A DNA stretch of 64,000 bases. Source: Clostridia bacterium. GTDB lineage: Bacteria; Bacillota; Clostridia; RUG12999. Positions 1,879 to 58,881 of this stretch are shown piece after piece. Under the pieces are notes generated by a model, which saw nothing but the letters and a program-made list of their open reading frames with translations, made no database searches and was not told where the DNA came from. Position numbers and translations under genes: made by a program. The first letter of the stretch is position 1, and every line of letters starts with the position of its first letter. The DNA lies in the NCBI GenBank assembly GCA_045648785.1, contig JAZROP010000036.1, forward strand, positions 2,457 through 66,456, read 5' to 3'.

Positions 1879-2915
1879 AGCTGTCTTAAAATTAGAAACA
1901 GCTTTATTATGCAAAAGAGTGCTAAAAAAACAAACAATAAAATACGGATAAATGAAAGCGGCTTGAGCCGACCTGTTTTAAAACCGTATAAAAACATAGT
2001 AATAAGAGGCGAAATTATTGCAGACATGACTTTACCTTTAAAGTAAAGTCCGGGCGATAGTTTCGCTTTTTTTATTATGCCCAGCACCTGCATATGAACG
2101 CAAAGTCCTGACCATGAGAGAACGGAAGAAAGCAGCATATAACACGGTAGGGAGGAGGGGATGGCATCTACAATGGCCATGCAACCACCGCTACATTCTG
2201 TCAGTCCATAAATAAGAGATTTACATAGTTCATAATTTATACCGAGAGATGAGAGGGCACTTATTATACCAAATTGGTTGATAAAAGAAATAAGGAGTGC
2301 AAACATAATGATATATCCACAGATATTAAGAGTAAGCAGAGTGGAGGTGGAAATAGCGTCGCTGAAAATTTCCCCAAAACTGATATTTTTATTTTGTAAA
2401 GTAATTTTCCTATTTACCGGGCAGGCAGGGATGGAGCGAAAAACAAATGCTATGGTAAGGGAAGTTAATATGTGAGAAAGATAAAGCATAATTCCGGCTC
2501 CGGGTTCACCAAGCATACCTGTTCCAAGGGCACCAATTACAAACATTGGTCCGCAGTTATTACAGAAAGCAAGTAGCTTTTCCGCCTCTGCTTTGGTGCA
2601 TAATCCTTCTGTATAAAGATCGGTAGCGGTTTTTGCCCCAACAGGATATCCGCTTATATATCCCATAATAACTGCGAGTGAACATGAGCCACCAAGGCCG
2701 AAAAGTGGTTTCATTAAAGGATTTAGCAACTTAGCGAGAAAGTTTGCCGCGCCTGAATTTATAAGCACATTACTGCATACGAAAAATGGAAAAAGAGATG
2801 GAATGATAGACTGGGCGCACAGCTTAAGGGCCCATTTTGCTGTTTCAATTGAAGAAGTAGGAAAAAATACGAGAAGAAGAAAATATATTGCGGCGGGTAT
2901 TATAATTTTTTTCAT
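1845..2915 (-). CDS. ylbJ: sporulation integral membrane protein YlbJ (nucleoside-recognition-domain family)
   Basis: Polytopic membrane protein with an N-terminal region that resembles YlbJ. Convergent 34-nt overlap with the radical SAM gene. Confidence 0.7.
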   Translation of the reverse strand: MKKIIIPAAIYFLLLVFFPTSSIETAKWALKLCAQSIIPSLFPFFVCSNVLINSGAANFLAKLLNPLMKPLFGLGGSCSLAVIMGYISGYPVGAKTATDLYTEGLCTKAEAEKLLAFCNNCGPMFVIGALGTGMLGEPGAGIMLYLSHILTSLTIAFVFRSIPACPVNRKITLQNKNISFGEIFSDAISTSTLLTLNICGYIIMFALLISFINQFGIISALSSLGINYELCKSLIYGLTECSGGCMAIVDAIPSSLPCYMLLSSVLSWSGLCVHMQVLGIIKKAKLSPGLYFKGKVMSAIISPLITMFLYGFKTGRLKPLSFIRILLFVFLALFCIIKLFLILRQLYFRYSAHPPR

Positions 2916-3001
2916 GTCAAATCACCTTTAAAAGTATATGAGATTTAATCATTAAGAATGATAGGGCGGCATAAAATTAAATGAAAGGCGAGGGAGATAA
3001 A

Positions 3002-3295
3002 ATGAGAAAAAAAGGTCCTGAATTGCCGGAAAAATCGCCGGCGGAAAAGGTAATGGACGCATTCCAGCTGCCCAAAAACAAAAGTGGTATTATAACTGCC
3101 CTGCACATTACCGGTGTTCATGAAGCGATTGTGGAGGGACATCGCGGCATTATTGAATATACTAGTGAAGTTATAAGGCTTAATACGCCTCAGTTTATAA
3201 TGAAAATCAGTGGAGCGGAGCTTGAAATTACTGCTGTTGCAGAGGAGTATATAGAACTTAAAGGTTTAATCTGCGGCGTGGAATATCTTTTCTAA
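3002..3295 (+). CDS. yqfC: sporulation protein YqfC
   Basis: YqfC-like sequence followed by yqfD. GAGGGAG RBS lies 6 nt before the ATG at 3002; the ORF-track start at 2981 has no RBS. Confidence 0.8.
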   Translation: MRKKGPELPEKSPAEKVMDAFQLPKNKSGIITALHITGVHEAIVEGHRGIIEYTSEVIRLNTPQFIMKISGAELEITAVAEEYIELKGLICGVEYLF

Positions 3296-33150: not shown

Positions 33151-33183
33151 ACAAAAAGGGGTGAATGACATTGTCATTCACCC
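33151..33183 (-). terminator. terminator of the aro supraoperon
   Basis: GGGTGAATGAC/GTCATTCACCC inverted repeat overlapping the aroQ stop. CTTTTTGT follows on the minus strand. Confidence 0.7.
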
Positions 33184-33617
33184 TGTTTGTTTAAGTAATC
33201 TTCAAGATATTCAATAGCTTTTTTATATCCGTCAAAGCCATAGCCGGCAAATGTTGTCAGACAGTGCAGCCGAACATAAGAAATCTGTCTGAAATCCTCG
33301 CGTGCGGAAACATCCGACAGGTGCACCTCTACGGCAGGAAGATTGACTGCCTTTAGCGCATCAAGAATGGCTACACTCGTATGAGTGTAAGCCGCAGGGT
33401 TTATAACAATTCCGTCAAAATTCCCATAAGCTGCCTGAATTTCATCAACAATTACGCCTTCGTGGTTTGACTGAAAAACCTTTACTTCAATATTTTCCTC
33501 TTTGCAGGTTTCTTCAATAAATTTGACAAGAGCGTCATAGTTTTTATCACCGTAAATATCCGGCTCGCGAAGACCAAGCATATTTAGGTTTGGTCCGTTT
33601 ATTACAAGTAATTTCAT
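33174..33617 (-). CDS. aroQ: type II 3-dehydroquinate dehydratase
   Basis: INGPNLNMLGLREPDIYG and HLSDV motifs. ATGA overlap with the upstream gene. Confidence 0.9.
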   Translation of the reverse strand: MKLLVINGPNLNMLGLREPDIYGDKNYDALVKFIEETCKEENIEVKVFQSNHEGVIVDEIQAAYGNFDGIVINPAAYTHTSVAILDALKAVNLPAVEVHLSDVSAREDFRQISYVRLHCLTTFAGYGFDGYKKAIEYLEDYLNKQGE

Positions 33618-34831
33618 AGGATACACTCCTTAATTTTCATAACAGTTTCCTCAGGGGAAGAGTTGTTGTCAATTTCAAAATCACAGAAACGCTCATACAG
33701 CGGCTTTCTGATTTTATACATTTGAGAAAGATTTCCTGACTTTGAAAGTGGTCTGCCATCTGTAGGGAGAGTGTTTATATCCCGCTTCAGCCAAATAATA
33801 ACACTGTTCTGGTGAAGCAGGGAATAGTTTCTTTCCTGAGTGACGCATCCACCACCTGTTGAAATAATGTAGCCGCTTTCTTTGGAAATATCTTTTATAA
33901 CTTCAGTTTCAATATTTCGGAAGTATTCCTCACCATGCTCAGCAAAGATTTTTTCAATTTTTCCGGCACGCTCCACTATCATACTGTCACAATCTGCGAA
34001 AGGTCTTGAAAGATTACTGGATAAAAGCGCACCAATACGGCTTTTTCCGCATCCTGGCATTCCAATAAGAACAATATTTTTTAACTGAGTGTTTATTTTT
34101 TTAACAATCTCATCAATTTTTTCATCCTCTATTTTTTCGCCACTGAAAATTTCACAAGCAGCTTTTGCCTGAGCAACAAGCATAGGAAGTCCGTTAACAT
34201 TTGGAATATTAAGACGCTCAGCATCATATAGAAGCTTTGTGCAGGAGGGGTTGTAGATAAGGTCTGCAACACCACTGCAATTTTTGAAATTTTCAAGATT
34301 TATGGGAGATGCGGGCGTGTTGGGATACATTCCCACAGGCGTTGCATTAACTATAATGTCCGCATCATAGTGACGGGAAATGTTGTCATAGTTATTTTCA
34401 CCACTTCGTGATATAACAACTATTTCCGAAGCCCCCAAATCTTTTATTACGCATTGTACTGTAAGAGAGGCACCACCGGTTCCAAGAACTAAAACTTTTT
34501 TATTTTTAGGGGATATTTCTGCTTTTTTAAGCATATGTACAAAGCCAAAATAATCTGTGTTATGACCGTGCCATCCATCCTCTTTTAAAACAAGTGTGTT
34601 TACGCTGCCTGTTTTTTTAGCGGCTTCTGAGAGCTGTGAGCAGTAGGCAATAACAGCCTTTTTATATGGAATTGTAACATTCATACCGTCAAGTGAGGGA
34701 TTCTTTAAAAAATCCTCAAGCTCTGACGACGTTTTTTCATAAAGCTTATATTCATAGTTTGCGAGCATATTATGAATTGGGACGGAGAAACTGTGTCCCA
34801 GATGCTCACCAAGTAAACCGAATCGGGACAT
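33614..34831 (-). CDS. aroE-aroK: fused shikimate dehydrogenase / shikimate kinase
   Basis: N-terminal AroE region (GLLGEHLGHSFS, NTD, GTGGAS). C-terminal AroK region (GMPGCGKS Walker A, STGGG). Confidence 0.85.
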   Translation of the reverse strand: MSRFGLLGEHLGHSFSVPIHNMLANYEYKLYEKTSSELEDFLKNPSLDGMNVTIPYKKAVIAYCSQLSEAAKKTGSVNTLVLKEDGWHGHNTDYFGFVHMLKKAEISPKNKKVLVLGTGGASLTVQCVIKDLGASEIVVISRSGENNYDNISRHYDADIIVNATPVGMYPNTPASPINLENFKNCSGVADLIYNPSCTKLLYDAERLNIPNVNGLPMLVAQAKAACEIFSGEKIEDEKIDEIVKKINTQLKNIVLIGMPGCGKSRIGALLSSNLSRPFADCDSMIVERAGKIEKIFAEHGEEYFRNIETEVIKDISKESGYIISTGGGCVTQERNYSLLHQNSVIIWLKRDINTLPTDGRPLSKSGNLSQMYKIRKPLYERFCDFEIDNNSSPEETVMKIKECIL

Positions 34832-35973
34832 TATATAACCTCCGAATAGCTACCAAAATATTTGAAATCTTCGGAAATTTCGTCAAGCTCGCAGATAAGC
34901 TGAGCAAACTCCTCAGAATAAACTGATGTTTCAAGGTCGAAATAGAACATGAACTCGAAATCACGGTCGGGAATGGGACGGCTTTCAAGTTTTATAAGGT
35001 TTATGCCAAGAGCGTAAAGACGAGCAAGCGTTTTGTAAAGCGAACCCGGTTTGTGGGGAGCGATAAGCATAAGACTAGTTTTGTCCGCTCCGGGGTAGAT
35101 TTCAAGATTTTTAGATATACACACAAATCTTGTGTGGTTATTCTGATTGTCCTGAACAACGGTTTTGAGACATTCAAGATTATAAAGCTCAGCGCAAGTG
35201 TAGGAGGAGAGTGCCGCAATGTCACTTCGGTCGCTTTCTGACACCATTTTTGCTGCCACTGCAGTATTTTCACAACAAGTAATTTTAACATTCTTAAGAG
35301 AATTTAAGAATTCATTGCACTGACTTATTGCCTGTTCGTGAGAGAAAATTTCGCGAATCTGTGAAATGTCAGTACCTTTTTTCGCAAGCAAACTGTGGTT
35401 AACTTTTATCCGTGTACTTCTCACAATGTTAAAATTATGCTGAGTCATAAGGTCATAAACCTTTTTAACTGAGCCTGCTGTACTATTTTCGATGGGAAGC
35501 ACGCCATATTTGCATAAGCCGCTTTCAACTGCTGAAAAAACACCTTCAAAATTGCTCATATACATAATGCTTGGATTTTTAAACATTTTTTCGCACGCCA
35601 GCTGAGAATAGGCACCCTCAACGCCCTGACAAGCTACCTGAACATCGTTCGGGAAAAGTTTTGGAGTGTTTTCAACCGCGTCCATAATCTTACTGAACAT
35701 CTCAGTATTTTTATTAAGAAGTTTTCCCTGATAAGAACGGCTGAGCTCAAACATAAGCGAGTATAAAACTCGCATGTAGTTTTTAGTTTCAGGACGGGTT
35801 TTGCCTGCGATATCCGAAAGAATCTGGCGTTCGCGTGCGGAGTTTAATACAGGAAGATTATTTTCCTTTTTATATGCAGCAATTTTAGCCGCAATATCCA
35901 TACGGTTTTCAACCAGTTTTACTATTTCGTTGTCAATAGAGTCAATATCTTTTCTCAAGTTTTCAAGATTCAT
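34831..35973 (-). CDS. pheA: bifunctional chorismate mutase / prephenate dehydratase (P-protein)
   Basis: N-terminal CM type 2 helix (LRKDIDSIDNEIVKLVENR), a PDT domain, and a C-terminal ACT domain (ESRP). Confidence 0.85.
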   Translation of the reverse strand: MNLENLRKDIDSIDNEIVKLVENRMDIAAKIAAYKKENNLPVLNSARERQILSDIAGKTRPETKNYMRVLYSLMFELSRSYQGKLLNKNTEMFSKIMDAVENTPKLFPNDVQVACQGVEGAYSQLACEKMFKNPSIMYMSNFEGVFSAVESGLCKYGVLPIENSTAGSVKKVYDLMTQHNFNIVRSTRIKVNHSLLAKKGTDISQIREIFSHEQAISQCNEFLNSLKNVKITCCENTAVAAKMVSESDRSDIAALSSYTCAELYNLECLKTVVQDNQNNHTRFVCISKNLEIYPGADKTSLMLIAPHKPGSLYKTLARLYALGINLIKLESRPIPDRDFEFMFYFDLETSVYSEEFAQLICELDEISEDFKYFGSYSEVI

Positions 35974-35994
35974 AATATTTACAGCCTTTCAAAA

Positions 35995-36996
35995 TTATTT
36001 ATTAAAATCAAGATATGCGTCATATATGGCAATAGCGGTTGCCGCCTCTATACATACAACGGCACGGGGGACGATGCACGGGTCATGTCTACCGACAATG
36101 CTGAGAACCGTATTTTCCATACGGCTGAGAGAAACACTTTTCTGCTCTTTGCCGATTGAGGGAGTGGGTTTTACTGCTACACGGAAAATAATATCCTCAC
36201 CGGAGGTGAGTCCACCAAGTATGCCACCATGATTGTTAGTGCGAGTGCGTACTCTGCCTTCATCCATATAGTATTCGTCATTGTTTTCACTGCCAAAAAG
36301 CTTAGCACACTCAAAACCATTACCGAATTCAATTCCTTTAATTGCCGGAACGGCAAAAACAGCTTGAGAAATGCGATTTTCCATTCCGTCAAACATAGGG
36401 TCACCCAAGCCGACGGGGAGCCCGGAAACTCTACATTCTATCACTCCGCCAACCGAATCCTGATTTTCTCTTGCGCGGTCGATAATTTCATAAGCTTTAT
36501 CAAGGTTTGTTTCGCCGCCGATGCTTTTGATGTAAGCGGAAATGGTTATGCCCGTTTCCTCAAGAAGCTGTTTGCATATGCCGCCGGCAATGCATATGGG
36601 TGCAGTAATTCTGCCTGAAAAATGGCCGCCACCAGCAACATCGTTTGCTGCACTATGCCTTACATATGCGGGATAGTCCGCGTGAGCAGGACGAGGGATA
36701 TCCCGAATTTTTTCATAATCAACCGAACGGGTGTTTGTGTTTCTGATAATTGCACTTATGGGTGCGCCGCATGTAATGTCATTTATAAGACCTGATTGAA
36801 ATTCCACAAGGTCCGCCTCTTTTCGCGGAGTGGAATATTTGTCTTTTCCAGGAGCGCGTTTGTCCATAAATTGCTGAAGCTTTAGCGTATCGATTTTCTG
36901 ACCTGATTTAAGTCCGTCAATTGTAACGCCAATAGCTGGAGAATGGGACTGTCCCCAAACGGATATTTTTATGTTTTTACCAAAGGTACTTGACAT
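35995..36996 (-). CDS. aroC: chorismate synthase
   Basis: WGQSHSPAIG, RPAHADY and GRHDPC motifs. Confidence 0.9.
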   Translation of the reverse strand: MSSTFGKNIKISVWGQSHSPAIGVTIDGLKSGQKIDTLKLQQFMDKRAPGKDKYSTPRKEADLVEFQSGLINDITCGAPISAIIRNTNTRSVDYEKIRDIPRPAHADYPAYVRHSAANDVAGGGHFSGRITAPICIAGGICKQLLEETGITISAYIKSIGGETNLDKAYEIIDRARENQDSVGGVIECRVSGLPVGLGDPMFDGMENRISQAVFAVPAIKGIEFGNGFECAKLFGSENNDEYYMDEGRVRTRTNNHGGILGGLTSGEDIIFRVAVKPTPSIGKEQKSVSLSRMENTVLSIVGRHDPCIVPRAVVCIEAATAIAIYDAYLDFNK

Positions 36997-37016
36997 TTTT
37001 CTATGCCTGCCTTTCG

Positions 37017-38243
37017 TTAGTTTTCTATTGTAAAATTACAACCAAGAGCTTTAAAATCATCCCAAAAAGAGGGGTAAGATTTATTTACGGCTTCGGCTCC
37101 GGTGATTTCCACAGGACCATCTGAAATGAGAGAAGCTATTGCCGCGCTCATGGCGATGCGATGGTCATTAAAACTGTCAGTTTTTCCACCGCGAAGTCTG
37201 CCAACGCCTGTTATTATAAGACCATCATCTGTTTCCTCTGCTTTTCCGCCAAGACAATTAATCATATGAGCGGTGGTCTTGATGCGGTCGCTTTCCTTTA
37301 TGCGAAGTCGCTGAGCATTTTTGATAACGGTAACAGCGCCATCTGCGGCCGATGCTGTTACACAGATTATTGGCACAAGGTCAGGGATATTTGCAGCATC
37401 CACCACTATATACGAAAGTCCATTTTCTGTAAGTGACGTGGCAATTTCTACAATTTCTTTGTCACCCTGAGGAGAATTCTCATCAAGGTTTGTGCAGATT
37501 ATATCACCGTTGGTTAGCTTTCCGGCACAAATCCAGAAAGCACCATTTGACCAGTCCCCTTCGACATAATATTCGTTATCTGTGTGGTAACTGCCGGTTT
37601 TAACTGTGTATGTATTGTTTTTATAGTCAAGCTCTATACCAAAGCTTTTTATTGCGTTCACGGTCATTGTTATGTAATCAGCAGATTGAATATCGCCCGT
37701 CAGCGTAAGTGAGCTTTTTTCTTCAAGGAGCGGGAGAGCAAACAAAAGTCCGCTGACAAACTGAGAGGAAACGCTACCGTCAAGTGTGAAATTACCGCCT
37801 TTTAGTTTGCCGCTTAGTTTTAGAGTGTCGGGAGTGGGTCGTGAAATCTTTATCCCATGAGCTTCCAATTCCTCGGAAAGAGGGGACAGCGGTCTGTCGG
37901 CAAGCCGTCCGGACATTTTAAAGGTGGAGTTTGTCCCGAGTGCCGCCACAACACTTACCATAAATCTCAGGGTTGAACCGCTTTCACGGCAGTCTAGGAT
38001 GGTTTCGTGAGCGGCAATGGTTATTGGAATAACAGAAAATTTTCCCTTGGAATATTCAATCTTTGCGCCGAGAGCATTTAAACAATCGGCAGTTGCGAGG
38101 ATATCCTCGGATAAACTGTCGCAGTATATTGTGCAAGGTAAATCAGACAAAGCCGCACAAATAAGTTGACGGTGTGCCTGGGATTTTGACGCTCTTGCTG
38201 CAACGGAGCCTTTTAATTTTGAGGGGAAAATGGTTACTTTCAT
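37017..38243 (-). CDS. aroA: 3-phosphoshikimate 1-carboxyvinyltransferase (EPSP synthase)
   Basis: SKSQAHR, the LRIKESDR-type motif and NDHRIAM. Confidence 0.9.
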   Translation of the reverse strand: MKVTIFPSKLKGSVAARASKSQAHRQLICAALSDLPCTIYCDSLSEDILATADCLNALGAKIEYSKGKFSVIPITIAAHETILDCRESGSTLRFMVSVVAALGTNSTFKMSGRLADRPLSPLSEELEAHGIKISRPTPDTLKLSGKLKGGNFTLDGSVSSQFVSGLLFALPLLEEKSSLTLTGDIQSADYITMTVNAIKSFGIELDYKNNTYTVKTGSYHTDNEYYVEGDWSNGAFWICAGKLTNGDIICTNLDENSPQGDKEIVEIATSLTENGLSYIVVDAANIPDLVPIICVTASAADGAVTVIKNAQRLRIKESDRIKTTAHMINCLGGKAEETDDGLIITGVGRLRGGKTDSFNDHRIAMSAAIASLISDGPVEITGAEAVNKSYPSFWDDFKALGCNFTIEN

Positions 38244-38264
38244 AGTTTGCCTTTCTGCGGTAAT

Positions 38265-39314
38265 TTAAAGACCTGCCGCAATAAAATCTTCGGTTTCCTC
38301 TATTGGGATTTCTTTAAGTATGCAATTACCTGTTTTTTCAGGAAGAACAAGTGTTATTGTTCTGCCCTTGCGTTTTTTGTCATTTTCAATTATACCGGCA
38401 ATGTCACTGCCGGAAAATGTTGTTTCTGTTGGAAGATTAAAAGCTCTTATAAGATTTAATGTATCCTCTGTACAACTTTCGGGGCAAAATCCTTTTTCTG
38501 AGCAGGTTCTTGCCATAATCGCCATACCTGCAGCTACCGCACTGCCGTGTGTTACACCAAAATTGCTGAGAGTTTCAATTGCATGACCTACTGTGTGCCC
38601 GTAATTTAAAAGCTGGCGGATAGCACCGTCAAACTCGTCCTTGGATACTATATCGCTTTTAATCTGAATACAACGGGAAATTACATATTCACGGTCAAAA
38701 ATTTTACCTTTTTCACTAAGATGGCAGAATAGGTCATAGTCGCGGATGAGAGAATATTTTATAATTTCAGCACACCCATCAGCAAATATTTCATCAGACA
38801 GAGTTTTGGTGAGAGTGTAGTCACAGATTACAATATCCGGTTGATAAAACGCGCCACACAAATTTTTGCCTGCGTCAAGATCAATTGCAGTTTTACCGCC
38901 AACTGAGGAGTCCACCATGGCAAGAAGTGTAGTGGGAATTTGAAGATATTTTATGCCGCGCAGGTATGTTGCAGCTGCAAATCCGGCAAGGTCGCCCACA
39001 ACACCGCCTCCAAAAGCAATTATTGCATCTGAACGAGTCAGTTTGTTTTCTGCAAGGAAGTTGAGTAGTGAAGCATAAGTGGAAATGTTTTTTGATTTTT
39101 CGCCATGTTCCATTACATATTTTACTATCTCATACCTATCCTCAATGAGTGAAATAAGCTTATCGCCATAAAGCCTATTCACATTATCGTCTGTAACAAT
39201 ACAAACTTTGCCTTTTGGAAAAACCTCGCCCAAAAATTCGGGTGTTTTATCAATCAGGTTTTCGCCAATGTAAATATTATATTTTTTAGAGGTGTTTACA
39301 GTAACCGTTTTCAT
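38265..39314 (-). CDS. aroB: 3-dehydroquinate synthase
   Basis: GGGVVGDLAGFAA, a nucleotide-binding motif. YGHTVGHA, a metal-binding motif. Confidence 0.9.
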   Translation of the reverse strand: MKTVTVNTSKKYNIYIGENLIDKTPEFLGEVFPKGKVCIVTDDNVNRLYGDKLISLIEDRYEIVKYVMEHGEKSKNISTYASLLNFLAENKLTRSDAIIAFGGGVVGDLAGFAAATYLRGIKYLQIPTTLLAMVDSSVGGKTAIDLDAGKNLCGAFYQPDIVICDYTLTKTLSDEIFADGCAEIIKYSLIRDYDLFCHLSEKGKIFDREYVISRCIQIKSDIVSKDEFDGAIRQLLNYGHTVGHAIETLSNFGVTHGSAVAAGMAIMARTCSEKGFCPESCTEDTLNLIRAFNLPTETTFSGSDIAGIIENDKKRKGRTITLVLPEKTGNCILKEIPIEETEDFIAAGL

Positions 39315-40147
39315 TATCCGTCAACCTCCTTTTTTCTTTTTCTGCCCTCATCAAGTATTCTGATGAGAGTTTCCCTGTCACCGGTAAGAATAGCGGTTTT
39401 ATATTCTGTCAGTGAATTAATAAGAAAATCGATTTCTTTTGTAAGATGATGCGCATTGCCCAAAAACAGGTCTGCCCACATTTCAGGATTGAGCCACGCG
39501 ACTCTTGTAAGGTCCTTATAGCTTCCTGCTGATACGCCCTTGTGCTGCATTGCCGTAGGGCTTTTGATATATGCATTGGACACCACATGAGCAAGCTGAG
39601 ATGTGAAAGCGATTACACGGTCATGCTCGTCGGCTGTGGTTACTGAAATGTTGCCGAATTTTACAGGGGCAAGTAAAGACTTAATCTTGTCCAGAAATGC
39701 TATATCATCATATTTGGGTGGAACAATAACCATTGGAGCACCATCAAAAAGGTCCTCACGGGCATATTTTAAGCCACCATTATGACTTCCAGCCATGGGA
39801 TGACCGCCAATAAATGTAAAACCATGTTTTTCGGCAAGCTCAAAACCGATTTTACATATAGAATCCTTTATGCCGACACAGTCGATGACAACAGTTGTTT
39901 TTGAAAAATTAGCCGCATTGTCTTTTAGAAATTCCTGAGCACCTGCAGGGTAAATTGCGACTAGAATAAGGTCACAGCTTCCCATGTTTTCCGCTGTAAG
40001 TTTTTCGTCAATAGTTTCTGAAAGCAAGGCGAAGTCGGTGACGGTATTATTAATGTCATAGCCAAGAACGCGACAGTCTTCGTTGCGTTTGTATGCTTTG
40101 GCAAGAGAACCTCCTATAAGGCCAAGACCTGCTACACCGATAATCAT
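39314..40147 (-). CDS. tyrA: prephenate dehydrogenase
   Basis: Rossmann motif GLGLIGGS, and GGHPMAGS. Confidence 0.85.
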   Translation of the reverse strand: MIIGVAGLGLIGGSLAKAYKRNEDCRVLGYDINNTVTDFALLSETIDEKLTAENMGSCDLILVAIYPAGAQEFLKDNAANFSKTTVVIDCVGIKDSICKIGFELAEKHGFTFIGGHPMAGSHNGGLKYAREDLFDGAPMVIVPPKYDDIAFLDKIKSLLAPVKFGNISVTTADEHDRVIAFTSQLAHVVSNAYIKSPTAMQHKGVSAGSYKDLTRVAWLNPEMWADLFLGNAHHLTKEIDFLINSLTEYKTAILTGDRETLIRILDEGRKRKKEVDG

Positions 40148-41148
40148 TCCGTTACCACCTCACGAATTTTTGCCACTCGTTTTGCAACATCATCAAACTG
40201 CTCGGGAGTAAGCGACTGAGCACCATCGCAAAGGGCATGAATGGGGTCGTTGTGCACCTCTATCATAAGACCGTCTGCGCCTGCTGCCACTGCTGCCAGA
40301 GCCATGGGCTTTACAAGTTTTGCAACACCTGTTGCGTGGCTTGGGTCAATAACTATCGGCAGATGTGTAAGTTCTCTGAGCATAGGAACAGCAGAAAGGT
40401 CGAGAGTGTTTCTTGTATAGGTTTCGAAAGTTCTTATGCCGCGCTCACAAAGAATGACATTCTGGTTGCCCTCGGACATAATATATTCCGCACTCATCAG
40501 GAATTCTTTAAGTGTATTTGCAAGACCTCTTTTTAAAAGGATGGGTTTGTTTGTTTTTCCAAGTTCTTTTAAAAGGTCAAAGTTCTGCATGTTTCTTGCG
40601 CCAACCTGAATAATGTCAGCATGCTCAAAAAGCGGAAGATGATTGGCATTCATGATTTCAGTACAGAAGGGGAGACCGGTTTCCTTTTTAGCTTCATATA
40701 AAAGCTCAATGCCGTCTGCCTTGAGACCCTGGAAATCGTAAGGGGAGGTACGAGGTTTAAAAGCACCGCCTCTTAAAATGGTAGCACCCGATGCTTTAAC
40801 ACTATTTGCGACCGAGATCATCTGCTCGCGTGATTCTACCGAGCAGGGACCAGCAATAATTGCAAAGTGACCGCCACCTATTTTAACACCGTTCACATCA
40901 ACAACAGTGTCGTCCGGATGAAATTTTCTGTTACACTGTTTAAAGGGCTCTGAAACACGTTTTACTGAATCAACAATGTCAAGACTGCTGATAAGTTCCA
41001 TGTCAATTTTACTTGTGTCACCAACAAGACCAAGAACAGTGTACTGACTACCTTCGGATATATGAACTTCAATATTTTGTCCCTTAAGCCAGTTTATAAG
41101 GTTGTTTTTCTGTTCTGTTGTTGCATTTGATTTTACTACGGCTATCAT
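40144..41148 (-). CDS. aroF: 3-deoxy-7-phosphoheptulonate (DAHP) synthase, class I-beta, with an N-terminal ferredoxin-like regulatory domain
   Basis: GPCSVES and IDPSH motifs, plus an N-terminal extension of about 70 aa. AAAGGAGAG RBS. Confidence 0.9.
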
Positions 41149-41168
41149 ATTTTTCTCTCCTTTAAACT

Positions 41169-41198
41169 AAAAAAGCTACACAGTAATCTGTGTAGCTT
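41169..41198 (-). terminator. attenuator terminator immediately upstream of aroF
   Basis: Minus strand reads AAGCTACACAG-ATTA-CTGTGTAGCTT followed by TTTT. Perfect 11-bp stem ending 21 nt before the aroF ATG. Confidence 0.8.
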
Positions 41199-41239
41199 AA
41201 AAACATTCTGATTTGTTATTTTATAACTTTTGACTGTTT

Positions 41240-41332
41240 TTATTTTTCGCAACACAAATTACTACCGGCATTAATAAAAAAGCGGTAGAAAAAGTAATAA
41301 AAATAGTTGCTGAAAAATAAGTTTGCAGCCAT
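41240..41332 (-). CDS. 30-codon Phe/Tyr-rich leader peptide (putative attenuation leader)
   Basis: AAGGAGA RBS then ATG. Own translation: MAANLFFSNYFYYFFYRFFINAGSNLCCEK. It has 7 Phe and 4 Tyr in 14 consecutive codons and lies between the promoter and the terminator. Confidence 0.65.
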   Translation of the reverse strand: MAANLFFSNYFYYFFYRFFINAGSNLCCEK

Positions 41333-41364
41333 TTGATTGGTCTCCTTAAAAAATCATTAAAAGT

Positions 41365-41393
41365 ATTATACTACTTTTGCAAAGCTTTGTCAA
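41365..41393 (-). promoter_or_regulatory. consensus sigma-A promoter of the aro leader/supraoperon
   Basis: Minus strand reads TTGACA (41393-41388)-17 nt-TATAAT (41370-41365), a perfect match to consensus. Confidence 0.7.
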
Positions 41394-41401
41394 TAGTTTT
41401 T

Positions 41402-42376
41402 TTACCTTTCCTCGCGGAAATATGCAAGTCCAAGACTCTGTGGAGGCTGGTTTTCTTTTTTGCTCCGGATACTTGTGATTATAAGCACAATGATTGTTAC
41501 AATATAGGGAAGCATATTAAAAAGTGCAACGGAACTTCTGCTGATTCCGGAAATGTAGTTATAAGCGATATAAAGACCGCCAAAAATTATGGAACCTAAA
41601 ATGCTGAAACTGGGTTTCCAAAGCGCAAAAATTACAAGCGCAATAGCAAGCCAACCACGGTCACCAAAGCCACCGTTTGTCCATGAACCACCTGTGTAGT
41701 CCATAATAAAATAAAGACCACCAAGACCTGCAATCATGCCACCGATAACAGTAGCAAGATATTTATATTTTGTAACGCTTATACCTGCAGCATCAGCTGT
41801 AGCAGGATTTTCGCCGACGGCTCTTAAATGCAGACCAGTGCGGGTACGGTTTAAAAACCATGTAGCTACAATGGCAATGATTATGGCAAGGTAGACAAGA
41901 AAACCGTAGTTAAAGAAAATTTCACCAAACCAGCCTAAGTTTTTCGCAAATGGTAGAGTAACTTTAAAACAGTCAGCACTTGCCTTTACGGAAATGTTAC
42001 CGCCATTACCTACAATCTGGGTAAGCGAACCACCGAAAAAGTCTCCAAAACCCACACCAAATGTAGTGAGTGCCAAACCTGTTACATTTTGATTTGCGCG
42101 GAGTGTAATTGTTAAAAAACTGTAAATGAGCGCGAGAAGTCCTGAGCCTATAAGAGAACACAAAAGAGGAATAATAACGCATAGAGCGGGATTTGGCACC
42201 TGTACGGACCTCTCGTAGAGATATGCACCGATGATTCCGGCACTTCCGCCGACATACATTATTCCGGGAATACCAAGGTTCAAATTTCCTGATTTTTCAG
42301 TAATTATCTCACCGGTTGAACCAAAGAGGAGAGGGATGCCCTGAACTATTGCTTTGTTAATAATTGTTGCAAACAT
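41402..42376 (-). CDS. ABC transporter permease (BMP/nucleoside-type, NupQ-like)
   Basis: Polytopic permease. Last gene of the BMP-type ABC operon. Confidence 0.8.
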   Translation of the reverse strand: MFATIINKAIVQGIPLLFGSTGEIITEKSGNLNLGIPGIMYVGGSAGIIGAYLYERSVQVPNPALCVIIPLLCSLIGSGLLALIYSFLTITLRANQNVTGLALTTFGVGFGDFFGGSLTQIVGNGGNISVKASADCFKVTLPFAKNLGWFGEIFFNYGFLVYLAIIIAIVATWFLNRTRTGLHLRAVGENPATADAAGISVTKYKYLATVIGGMIAGLGGLYFIMDYTGGSWTNGGFGDRGWLAIALVIFALWKPSFSILGSIIFGGLYIAYNYISGISRSSVALFNMLPYIVTIIVLIITSIRSKKENQPPQSLGLAYFREER

Positions 42377-58374: not shown

Positions 58375-58881
58375 TTAGTTTGCCACTTTTACCATGCTGT
58401 GGCGAATAATTTTTTCTTTATATTTATAACCGGGCATAAGTTCTTCGACAATCATATTGTCCCCGACGGAGTCGTCATCAATATGCATAACTGCATTGTG
58501 AAGATTAGGGTCAAATTCTGTGCCGACAGCCGGAATTTTTTCTATGCCAATATTGGCAAATGCTTCGTCAAACTGACGAGCGATAAGCATAAAGCCTTGC
58601 TTTGCGGGATTGTCATCTTCTCCGTCGAGAGCAGCAATCGCACGGGCAAGGTTATCCATTGCGGGAAGCAGATGCATCACAGCATCACCAACACTCTGTG
58701 CAGCTATCATATCACGCTCTTTAATTGTACGCTTTCTGAAATTATCATATTCTGCTGCAAGCCGCATAAGTTTATCTTCATATTCGGCTTTTATGGATTC
58801 GCAGGTAACCTGCGGTGTTTCTTCAGCCACTTCTTCAGAAACTTCTTCTATAATTTCTTCTTTTTCATTCTTCTCTTTCAT
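58375..58881 (-). CDS. grpE: nucleotide exchange factor GrpE
   Basis: RLAAEYDNFRKR motif. Positioned between hrcA and dnaK. Confidence 0.9.
   Translation of the reverse strand: MKEKNEKEEIIEEVSEEVAEETPQVTCESIKAEYEDKLMRLAAEYDNFRKRTIKERDMIAAQSVGDAVMHLLPAMDNLARAIAALDGEDDNPAKQGFMLIARQFDEAFANIGIEKIPAVGTEFDPNLHNAVMHIDDDSVGDNMIVEELMPGYKYKEKIIRHSMVKVAN

Follow-up and report, generated by a model that had tools for sequence, protein, structure and literature searches.

A predicted phenylalanine- and tyrosine-sensing transcription attenuator upstream of the aromatic amino acid operon in Oscillospirales-type Clostridia

A stretch of 64,000 nucleotides (nt) from contig JAZROP010000036.1 of a Clostridia bacterium (GenBank assembly GCA_045648785.1; the whole stretch is here called the window) carries on its minus strand a leader region directly upstream of aroF, the first gene of an operon for aromatic amino acid synthesis. 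We predict, with a probability of roughly 85%, that this leader is a ribosome-mediated transcription attenuator, which would sense phenylalanine (Phe, F) and tyrosine (Tyr, Y) through the charging of Phe- and Tyr-tRNA. A translatable open reading frame (ORF) with a ribosome-binding site, a start codon and its own promoter is followed by an intrinsic terminator, located between the leader ORF and the first structural gene; the ORF contains a cluster of the cognate codons that is conserved among orthologous leaders; and the RNA can form an antiterminator, exclusive of the terminator and with modest covariation, as well as an anti-antiterminator, all so placed that the position of the ribosome would select the fold. 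The prediction was made in silico, and combines these elements and their conservation with the covariation of a hairpin (P1) and of the terminator, a three-way complementarity within the RNA, the link to aromatic genes and folding calculations; from these we infer that the ribosome stalls, how stalling is timed against RNA polymerase, and how the leader responds to the supply of amino acids. An earlier reading of the DNA alone (the sequence-only reading) had proposed an F/Y-coding leader peptide choosing between antiterminator and terminator, an interpretation that the comparative evidence supports.

Leader peptide and alternative RNA structures

The promoter of the leader (TTGACA/TATAAT, 41393-41365) is the sole site that agrees with the consensus at 12 of 12 positions in the 13.5 kb scanned (33-46.5 kb), and it starts at the ninth nucleotide past the TAA stop codon (41404-41402) of the upstream permease gene. 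The sequence-only reading had placed on the minus strand this promoter, a Shine-Dalgarno site and an ATG at 41332 opening a 30-codon ORF (MAANLFFSNYFYYFFYRFFINAGSNLCCEK; stop codon at 41242-41240). All 12 consensus positions and all these coordinates check, and the reported count of 7 Phe and 4 Tyr codons within 14 codons (41317-41276) is exact. As also reported, the leader ORF of the window contains no Trp codon. Comparison of the leader peptides with Pfam and NCBIfam returned no family match.

For the RNA, region 1 denotes a segment of early ORF codons, region 2 the antiterminator arm, and regions 3 and 4 the two halves of the terminator hairpin (Table 1). The stem of the latter comprises 11 perfect pairs (-15.5 kcal/mol), and the T run that follows extends to 41169, its end lying 21 nt before the ATG of aroF. 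The segment ATTTGTGTTGC (41259-41249) of the arm can pair with GCTACACAGAT (41196-41186) through nine Watson-Crick pairs and one G-U pair, with one U-U mismatch, the energy of this antiterminator duplex being -10.9 kcal/mol. Region 3 together with the loop (41198-41184) is also complementary to region 2. Both the complementarity of arm and terminator and the 11-bp terminator with its U tract had been pointed out from the sequence, and were confirmed where they had been placed.

Folding was then consistent with a choice made by the ribosome. The minimum-energy structure of the nascent RNA up to 41184 is the antiterminator, stacked on an A/U-rich inner hairpin, while the unmasked full-length leader folds as the region 1:2 pairing plus the terminator (z = -2.4). 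When a ribosome footprint was masked at F/Y codons 6-18, the antiterminator was retained; when it was masked at codon 23 or beyond, or at the stop codon, the antiterminator was lost. These results match the logic originally put forward, in which a ribosome at the stop codon covers the arm and one stalled on the F/Y run frees it. The arm GUAAUUUGUGUUGC starts at least 14 nt past the last F/Y codon in the window, and would stay free of a ribosome stalled on the F/Y run.

A competing 1:2 structure had also been suggested for the untranslated leader, composed of GCAAC (41310-41306) paired with GTTGC (41253-41249) and of CTACCG paired with CGGTAG. Both pairings are real, and both occur in the minimum-energy fold of the untranslated leader. 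However, the CTACCG/CGGTAG hairpin (P1), a local version of a conserved hairpin with a 5' arm composed of Tyr codons, is compatible with the antiterminator; it is the outer helix, in which early ORF codons pair with the arm, that competes with the latter.

In the mechanism that we propose, transcription would start at the consensus promoter and a ribosome would load on the 30-codon leader. If Phe or Tyr is scarce, the ribosome would stall on the 11 F/Y codons, covering region 1 and the 5' arm of P1 and leaving the antiterminator arm (41261-41248) free; the arm would then capture the 5' half of the terminator (41198-41184) ahead of synthesis of the 3' half, and polymerase would read through into aroF-tyrA-aroB-aroA-aroC-pheA-aroE/K-aroQ. 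If both amino acids are plentiful, the ribosome would reach the stop codon and cover the arm, so that the 11-bp terminator would form. If the leader is not translated, region 1 would pair with the arm, and the terminator would form in this case too. P1 may serve as a pause hairpin for the timing of RNA polymerase.

Table 1. Coordinates, within the window, of the predicted attenuator and of the operon it would control.
Feature	Position	Strand	Details and basis
Sigma-A type promoter	41365..41393	-	TTGACA 41393-41388, 17-nt spacer, TATAAT 41370-41365
Shine-Dalgarno site of leader ORF, AAGGAGA	41341..41347	-	8 nt 5' of ATG; sequence reading
Leader ORF, 30 codons plus stop, MAANLFFSNYFYYFFYRFFINAGSNLCCEK	41240..41332	-	ATG at 41332; ORF list
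Extent of match to covariance model R1	41165..41329	-	72.8 bits, E = 1.8e-14, sole match in the 64-kb window, which is in the seed
Region 1, anti-antiterminator 5' strand (UAUUUUUC.GCAAC, codons 5-9)	41306..41319	-	Partner 41253-41241; minimum-energy fold
Regulatory codon run, codons 6-19	41276..41317	-	7 Phe (5 TTT, 2 TTC), 4 Tyr (2 TAT, 2 TAC)
P1 hairpin, CTACCG 41288-41283 / CGGTAG 41267-41262	41262..41288	-	Folds; local form of conserved CTATTACTT/AAGTAATAG
Region 2, antiterminator arm GUAAUUUGUGUUGC (41261-41248; conserved core TTTGTGYTGC), extended to stop codon	41241..41261	-	Pairs with region 1 or region 3
Terminator hairpin: region 3 AAGCTACACAG 41198-41188, loop ATTA, region 4 CTGTGTAGCTT 41183-41173	41173..41198	-	Terminator scan, folding
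U tract of terminator (TTTTTTAG)	41167..41174	-	Sequence reading, terminator scan
Controlled operon: aroF (DAHP synthase), tyrA, aroB, aroA, aroC, pheA (chorismate mutase/prephenate dehydratase), aroE-aroK fusion, aroQ	33174..41148	-	NCBIfam matches, ORF list

Conservation of the leader in relatives

Codons such as TTT and TAT arise easily in A+T-rich DNA, and shuffle and strand controls were therefore run. The sample consisted of 80 loci from species-representative genomes, with AroF 63-80% identical to that of the window. In the 300 nt before aroF, 61 of the 80 loci have an in-frame stretch of 12 codons with at least 7 F/Y, compared with 1.4 of 80 in dinucleotide-preserving shuffles and 2 of 80 on the reverse strand. 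The F/Y run is kept in 61-70 of the 80 relatives, and the F/Y-rich leader is not a product of chance. Comparing the aroF upstream regions of relatives, which the sequence-only reading had named as a check on itself, showed the short F/Y-rich ORF to be conserved (61/80 vs 1.4 expected), and compensatory changes to be present. In the window itself, a six-frame scan of the 64 kb for stop-free stretches in which 9 or more of 12 codons are F/Y gave only two, the first being the leader. The other, an F-rich frame (FFRNFFYNFFFF, 58815-58870, plus strand), was rejected as a leader: it runs antisense to a gene at 58375-58881 (minus strand), of which it is a by-product.

The related leaders are 16-35 codons long and contain 18.5% Phe and 18.2% Tyr, with 6-11 F/Y codons in roughly equal shares and no Trp codon in any of 62 leaders. 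They start with ATG in 60 of 61 cases, and in 93% of the 61 a Shine-Dalgarno site matching over 4 nt or more precedes the start. Upstream of them, the best promoter match scores on average 10.1 of 12 (8.0 after shuffling), and reaches at least 11 of 12 in 30 of the 61. A strong terminator lies 20-45 nt before the aroF start in most relatives. The promoter, the Shine-Dalgarno site, the ATG, the F/Y run, the TTTGTGYTGC motif, the terminator and a hairpin of the CTACCG/CGGTAG type are all conserved in relatives.

Among close relatives the gene upstream of the element varies, being an ABC permease, a hexapeptide-repeat protein or DUF2238, and the element therefore travels with aroF. This bears on the conceivable explanation that the hairpin just ends transcripts of the upstream ABC operon, or acts as a partial terminator constitutively, the F/Y ORF being a T-rich by-product. 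Indeed, the hairpin is found about 200 nt past the permease stop codon, and the region is A+T rich (27% G+C in the match to the covariance model R1 described below), T-rich DNA giving TTT and TAT. Yet the permease stop is separated from the hairpin by a perfect promoter, 61 of 80 loci have F/Y runs that are nearly absent from the two controls, and the element accompanies aroF behind different upstream genes, and recurs before another operon. The comparative data already contradict a plain terminator, which we regard as the least credible of the alternatives.

It should be noted that gene callers skipped the leader ORF in the close relatives examined. In one of the loci (L204, 1034-1159, minus strand), a called 41-residue ORF runs on the opposite strand across the leader region, and the real leader ORF is missed; the call looks like a spurious one, caused by the unannotated element.

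A conserved RNA family

A common core can be recognised in 32 sequences, the window among them, which were aligned with MAFFT without fitting to structure (alignment A1). The core consists, in this order, of CTATTACTT (containing Tyr/Phe codons), which pairs with AAGTAATAG to give P1, three variable bases, TTTGTGYTGC, a variable linker, the terminator GCCGCACAG...CTGTGCGGC and a U run. The antiterminator arm is near-invariant across the 32 aligned sequences. A covariance model, R1, was built from the window and its 31 relatives, so that the window is part of the seed alignment. R1 found exactly one match, directly upstream of aroF, in 58 of the 80 genomes; elsewhere in 518 kb it gave one weak reverse-strand match, to a terminator. 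A second alignment of 60 rows, A2, was made from R1 matches, and was fitted to P1 and the terminator but not to the antiterminator.

On A1, 89.7% of the cells of P1 and the terminator are paired, and both partners have changed in 15 of 20 pairs (6 of 9 in P1, 9 of 11 in the terminator); none of 500 column shuffles did as well, and slid registers were 31-50% paired. On A2, both-side changes are seen in 20 of 20 pairs (9 in P1 and 11 in the terminator), a figure that leans favourable because A2 was fitted to the structure, and 92.7% of the P1 cells are paired. The antiterminator is not part of R1, and the alignment was therefore not fitted to it. Its helix is 85-90% paired, vs 28-62% in slid registers, and its covariation score on A2 was matched or exceeded by 2 of 500 shuffles.

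The anti-antiterminator was evaluated in 58 loci, where pairing of the arm with early ORF codons has a median energy of -9.5 kcal/mol, vs -5.0 for shuffles, with p <= 0.05 in 53% of the loci. Its 5' strand is often GCNGCACAG, that is, Ala-Ala-Gln codons, and lineage-specific variants of the arm are accompanied by compensating changes in four loci (L060, L058, L032 and L023). On these comparisons, P1 and the terminator covary strongly, and the antiterminator and anti-antiterminator have more modest support; of the latter two, the anti-antiterminator is the better supported.

The same logic is also seen with other sequences, the F/Y identity of the codons being retained there. Five loci (L047, L055, L056, L065 and L068) have an F/Y leader, a terminator and a well-placed complementary arm (-15.7 kcal/mol in L047), and their upstream RNA is unrelated to the conserved core and missed by R1. 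Either divergence or an independent origin would account for them.

Two types of leader can be distinguished within the family. The leader ORF of most relatives terminates at a TAATAG that lies within the 3' arm of P1 and is followed, some 8 nt further on, by the antiterminator arm, whereas in the clade of the window another frame reads through the same nucleotides (...S-N-S-D-L-C-C-K or ...G-S-N-L-C-C-E-K), and the stop codon is found just past the arm. The conserved LCC is an RNA constraint rather than a peptide motif, because the window clade merely reads the same nucleotides in another frame. The distance from the last F/Y codon to the start of the arm is 13-24 nt in the canonical family, and judging from known footprint sizes the arm would sit just outside a ribosome stalled on the run. 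The read-through type of leader is retained in four close relatives (AroF 86-91% identical). Compensatory changes in close relatives include TTACCG/CGGTAA in P1 of L202, and others in the terminator of L201.

Comparison with catalogued RNA families

A search with Rfam at the gathering score found no match in the whole 64-kb window on either strand, and hence no tRNA, rRNA, riboswitch or T-box; no family of release 15 matches the leader region. When the threshold was relaxed to E <= 10 for positions 40900-41700, the T-box, Phe_leader and leu/phe leader families were absent among the 16 matches listed. The matches to lactis-plasmid, tsr26 and ncS54 at this threshold were dismissed as terminator-driven chance hits, far below their gathering scores. 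Nor was there any match at the gathering score in 14 relatives without the leader. No T-box sequence (GGGTGGNACC-like) was found in the leader, and the longest chain of TRAP-like (G/U)AG triplets spaced 2-3 nt was one. The absence of a T-box, which had been stated from the letters alone, thus holds at the gathering score and at E <= 10, as does that of the Phe_leader and leu/phe leader families.

These negative results are relevant in considering a trans-acting factor. TRAP is a usual control of aromatic genes in Firmicutes. T-boxes are usual for these genes as well (PMC1262725, PMC9382623), and the core AAGTAATAG-NNN-TTTGTGYTGC is so strongly conserved that it could mark a binding site. The conserved RNA might accordingly be a switch for a protein of TRAP or PyrR type, for uncharged tRNA or for a small ligand, with the ORF being incidental. 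This appears very unlikely, considering that no Rfam family including T-box matches even at E <= 10, that neither a T-box sequence nor a (G/U)AG chain is seen, that conservation extends to the Shine-Dalgarno site, the ATG and the in-frame F/Y run, also where the RNA sequence differs, and that the F:Y ratios of the leaders track operon content. The strong conservation of the core can be ascribed to overlapping constraints, namely the Tyr codons, the tandem stop codons and the three-way pairing.

A second target, and codon content compared with operon content

Metagenome contigs were scanned with the exact core pattern GTAATAGNNNTTTGTGYTGC and no gene criterion, which returned 120 loci. An F/Y-rich ORF is present just upstream of the match in 66 of them. 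The remaining 54, mostly from marine or other habitats, have neither leader nor aroF, and were excluded as chance matches; R1 agrees with this exclusion except for two weak matches (L082 and L126).

The next gene is aroF in 30 of the 66 leader loci. In 32 contigs (L087, L089, L107, L147, L156, L184, L197 and others), the element is instead located ~100 nt before the gene of a lipoprotein of the Pfam family ABC_sub_bind. The best NCBIfam match of this lipoprotein is TrpX, the binding protein of a tryptophan ABC transporter, with 224.7 bits vs a cut-off of 390 bits, and it is therefore considered a TrpX paralogue and not TrpX itself. Although R1 was trained on aroF copies only, it scores the transporter copies at 63-93 bits. 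The importer leaders contain F/Y and no Trp codon, so that Phe/Tyr rather than Trp is the predicted substrate. In Streptococcus suis, TrpX is part of T-box-controlled tryptophan uptake, and is annotated as a tryptophan/tyrosine transport binding protein (PMC9382623). The presence of one sensor before genes of both aromatic synthesis and uptake is what an amino-acid-sensing attenuator predicts.

The codon content of the leaders also varies with the genes downstream. The fraction Y/(F+Y) is 0.60-0.86 (mean 0.74) in front of operons containing only aroF and tyrA (L002, L029, L033 and L203), compared with a mean of 0.49 for standard operons (n = 54; Mann-Whitney p = 0.0008). Operons without an adjacent tyrA, either aroF-pheA (L004) or aroF-aroB-aroA-aroC (L051/L054), have a mean of 0.32 (p = 0.008). 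The groups are small, and the correlation is therefore suggestive only. In L203 the leader (about 952-1109) is Tyr-dominated (MTVTNLYNNTYSYRYYRYSFCVGSNLCCGK), with aroF at 1201-2232 and tyrA at 2229-3062.

The second target and the codon content help to assess the idea that the leader is translated but indifferent to amino-acid supply, acting through nascent-peptide arrest, through a reinitiation boost of aroF or as a functional hydrophobic peptide. The peptide is in fact very hydrophobic and aromatic, and it has been proposed that reinitiation after a leader ORF can increase translation of the gene downstream (PMC4833913). However, length (16-35 residues) and sequence vary freely outside the F/Y run, and the stop codon is at least 90 nt before aroF, with a terminator in between. 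Moreover, the element also precedes an importer of aromatic type, and codon content tracks the biosynthetic branch that is controlled. We consider a supply-independent role of the leader peptide highly improbable, and favour the attenuator.

Two cultured species carry the element, Hominicoprocola fusiformis CLA-AA-H269 (L008, 91.6 bits) and Angelakisella massiliensis (L051, 32 bits), so that experiments are possible. AroF sequences 65-71% identical to the Clostridia type were also found in bins assigned to other phyla, namely L027 (Alloprevotella sp.), L018, L026 and L040 (Bacteroidaceae), L075 (Lentisphaerae) and L076 (Spirochaetales). L027 bears a Clostridia-type attenuator (75.8 bits), and the Bacteroidaceae loci are without leader; these AroF genes could reflect mis-binned contigs or horizontal transfer.

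The controlled operon and its neighbours

The operon downstream of the leader includes both pheA and tyrA according to NCBIfam, which agrees with the match between codon content and operon that had been noted from the sequence. A terminator scan located a terminator 3' of aroQ, at the end of the operon (33183-33159). The ABC transporter directly upstream of the leader was evaluated as a possible related unit and discarded, as it is of Bmp/PnrA type and not TrpX-like; it is considered unrelated to the leader because it ends before the promoter. The top protein match to AroF of the window, P0001 (NCBI, 6437-nt contig), is a product of 573 amino acids, the usual length being 334; it may have arisen by fusion, or from an erroneous gene call that runs aroF together with a neighbour.

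Relation to known attenuators

The classical attenuator mechanism is exemplified by trpL, pheL and pheM of E. coli. As in pheL-pheA and pheM-pheST, the element described here combines a short ORF rich in end-product codons with alternative hairpins, and the position of the ribosome decides (PMC11802643). In contrast to it, pheL and pheM are proteobacterial and sense Phe only, pheL controlling pheA alone, and no similarity of sequence or model with the E. coli Phe_leader was seen (no Rfam match at E <= 10).

According to the account of Neshat et al. (2014) given in PMC11802643, the AroR leader of Corynebacterium glutamicum, which has an F-Y-F motif, precedes the aroF operon, and stalling raises transcription. 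It resembles the present element in being a leader with Phe and Tyr codons directly upstream of a DAHP synthase gene. As described there, and it is on description that the two are set apart, aroR is actinobacterial, has F-Y-F only and responds to Phe and not to Tyr, unlike the present leaders with their 6-11 F/Y codons in roughly equal shares.

The predicted upstream ORF family uORFC-13-1 (Brewer et al. 2021, PMC8632094) has 24 representatives, in Acholeplasma and in unassigned environmental sequences, and occurs exclusively in front of aroF. By the description in PMC8632094, on which the comparison is based, it shares with our element this position and also the promoter, the ribosome-binding site, the presence of Phe codons, a further base-paired element and an intrinsic terminator next to the ORF; it is presented as a U run coding for at least one Phe, with Tyr going unmentioned. 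On this description, the two could be the same, sister or convergent families. In other phyla, aroF is already known to be preceded by close analogues of this kind.

In Firmicutes, leader-peptide attenuators have been reported for His, in the Bacillus cereus group and Peptostreptococcaceae (PMC2965389, PMC9413887), and for Leu, in Streptococcus and Staphylococcus aureus (PMC5314783, PMC5794164). Together with the Lactococcus leu/phe leaders, they share mechanism and phylum with our element, and are rare but established; they differ in amino acids and operons, and their sequences are unrelated. The background of the sequence-only reading, that few peptide leaders are known in Firmicutes, is dated in the light of these His and Leu leaders of the aroF upstream ORF predicted in Acholeplasma and of the F-Y-F leader shown before aroF in C. 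glutamicum. The T-box of trpXYZ and aromatic genes has the same targets, aromatic synthesis and a TrpX-type importer, and there too tRNA charging sets antiterminator vs terminator (PMC9382623), but the T-box binds uncharged tRNA directly and has no ORF.

Assessment and significance

Some considerations weigh against the prediction of an attenuator. The evidence is in silico throughout, and the source organism is uncultured. In the window, the terminator (-15.5 kcal/mol) is more stable than the antiterminator duplex, which contains a mismatch (-10.9 kcal/mol), and read-through therefore depends on kinetics. Both-side changes in the antiterminator are few (3-5 pairs, 6-11 cells; e.g. C-G to U-A in the clade of the window), and an alignment-free comparison of the antiterminator with shuffles gave a median z of -0.84, with p <= 0.05 in 25% of loci; little variation is to be expected, because the arm must pair with two partners. 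In leaders of the TAATAG type, footprint geometry suggests that a ribosome at the stop codon would leave all but the 5' part of the arm exposed. The correlation with operon content rests on 4 and 2 loci. Finally, as reported in PMC7858274, Johnson et al. (2020) describe transcription as outrunning ribosomes in Bacillus subtilis, and possibly in many bacteria, which works against a mechanism that depends on coupling.

The mechanism itself is textbook, and the family extends rather than overturns present knowledge. A literature search, which missed most subscription journals, retrieved no published description of the element in Oscillospirales, and the family appears to be uncatalogued. The chances are about even, in our judgement, that the full picture applies: an uncatalogued RNA-plus-peptide family of Oscillospirales-type Clostridia (58 of 80 sampled species-level genomes), common in human-gut metagenomes, with a Phe/Tyr regulon made up of the aro supraoperon and a TrpX-like importer predicted for Phe/Tyr, with Tyr codons that form a hairpin with the tandem stops UAAUAG, and with a Phe:Tyr ratio tuned to the downstream branch.

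Such a family would be a large and well-conserved addition to the short list of peptide-leader attenuators of Firmicutes. The importer copy of the element predicts the substrate of an uncharacterised TrpX paralogue, and for many gut Clostridia, most of them uncultured, the family offers an annotation of how the aromatic pathway is regulated that can be put to the test. If the element works as predicted, ribosome and polymerase would have to be tightly timed at these leaders, in a phylum whose transcription is generally considered to run mostly ahead of translation.

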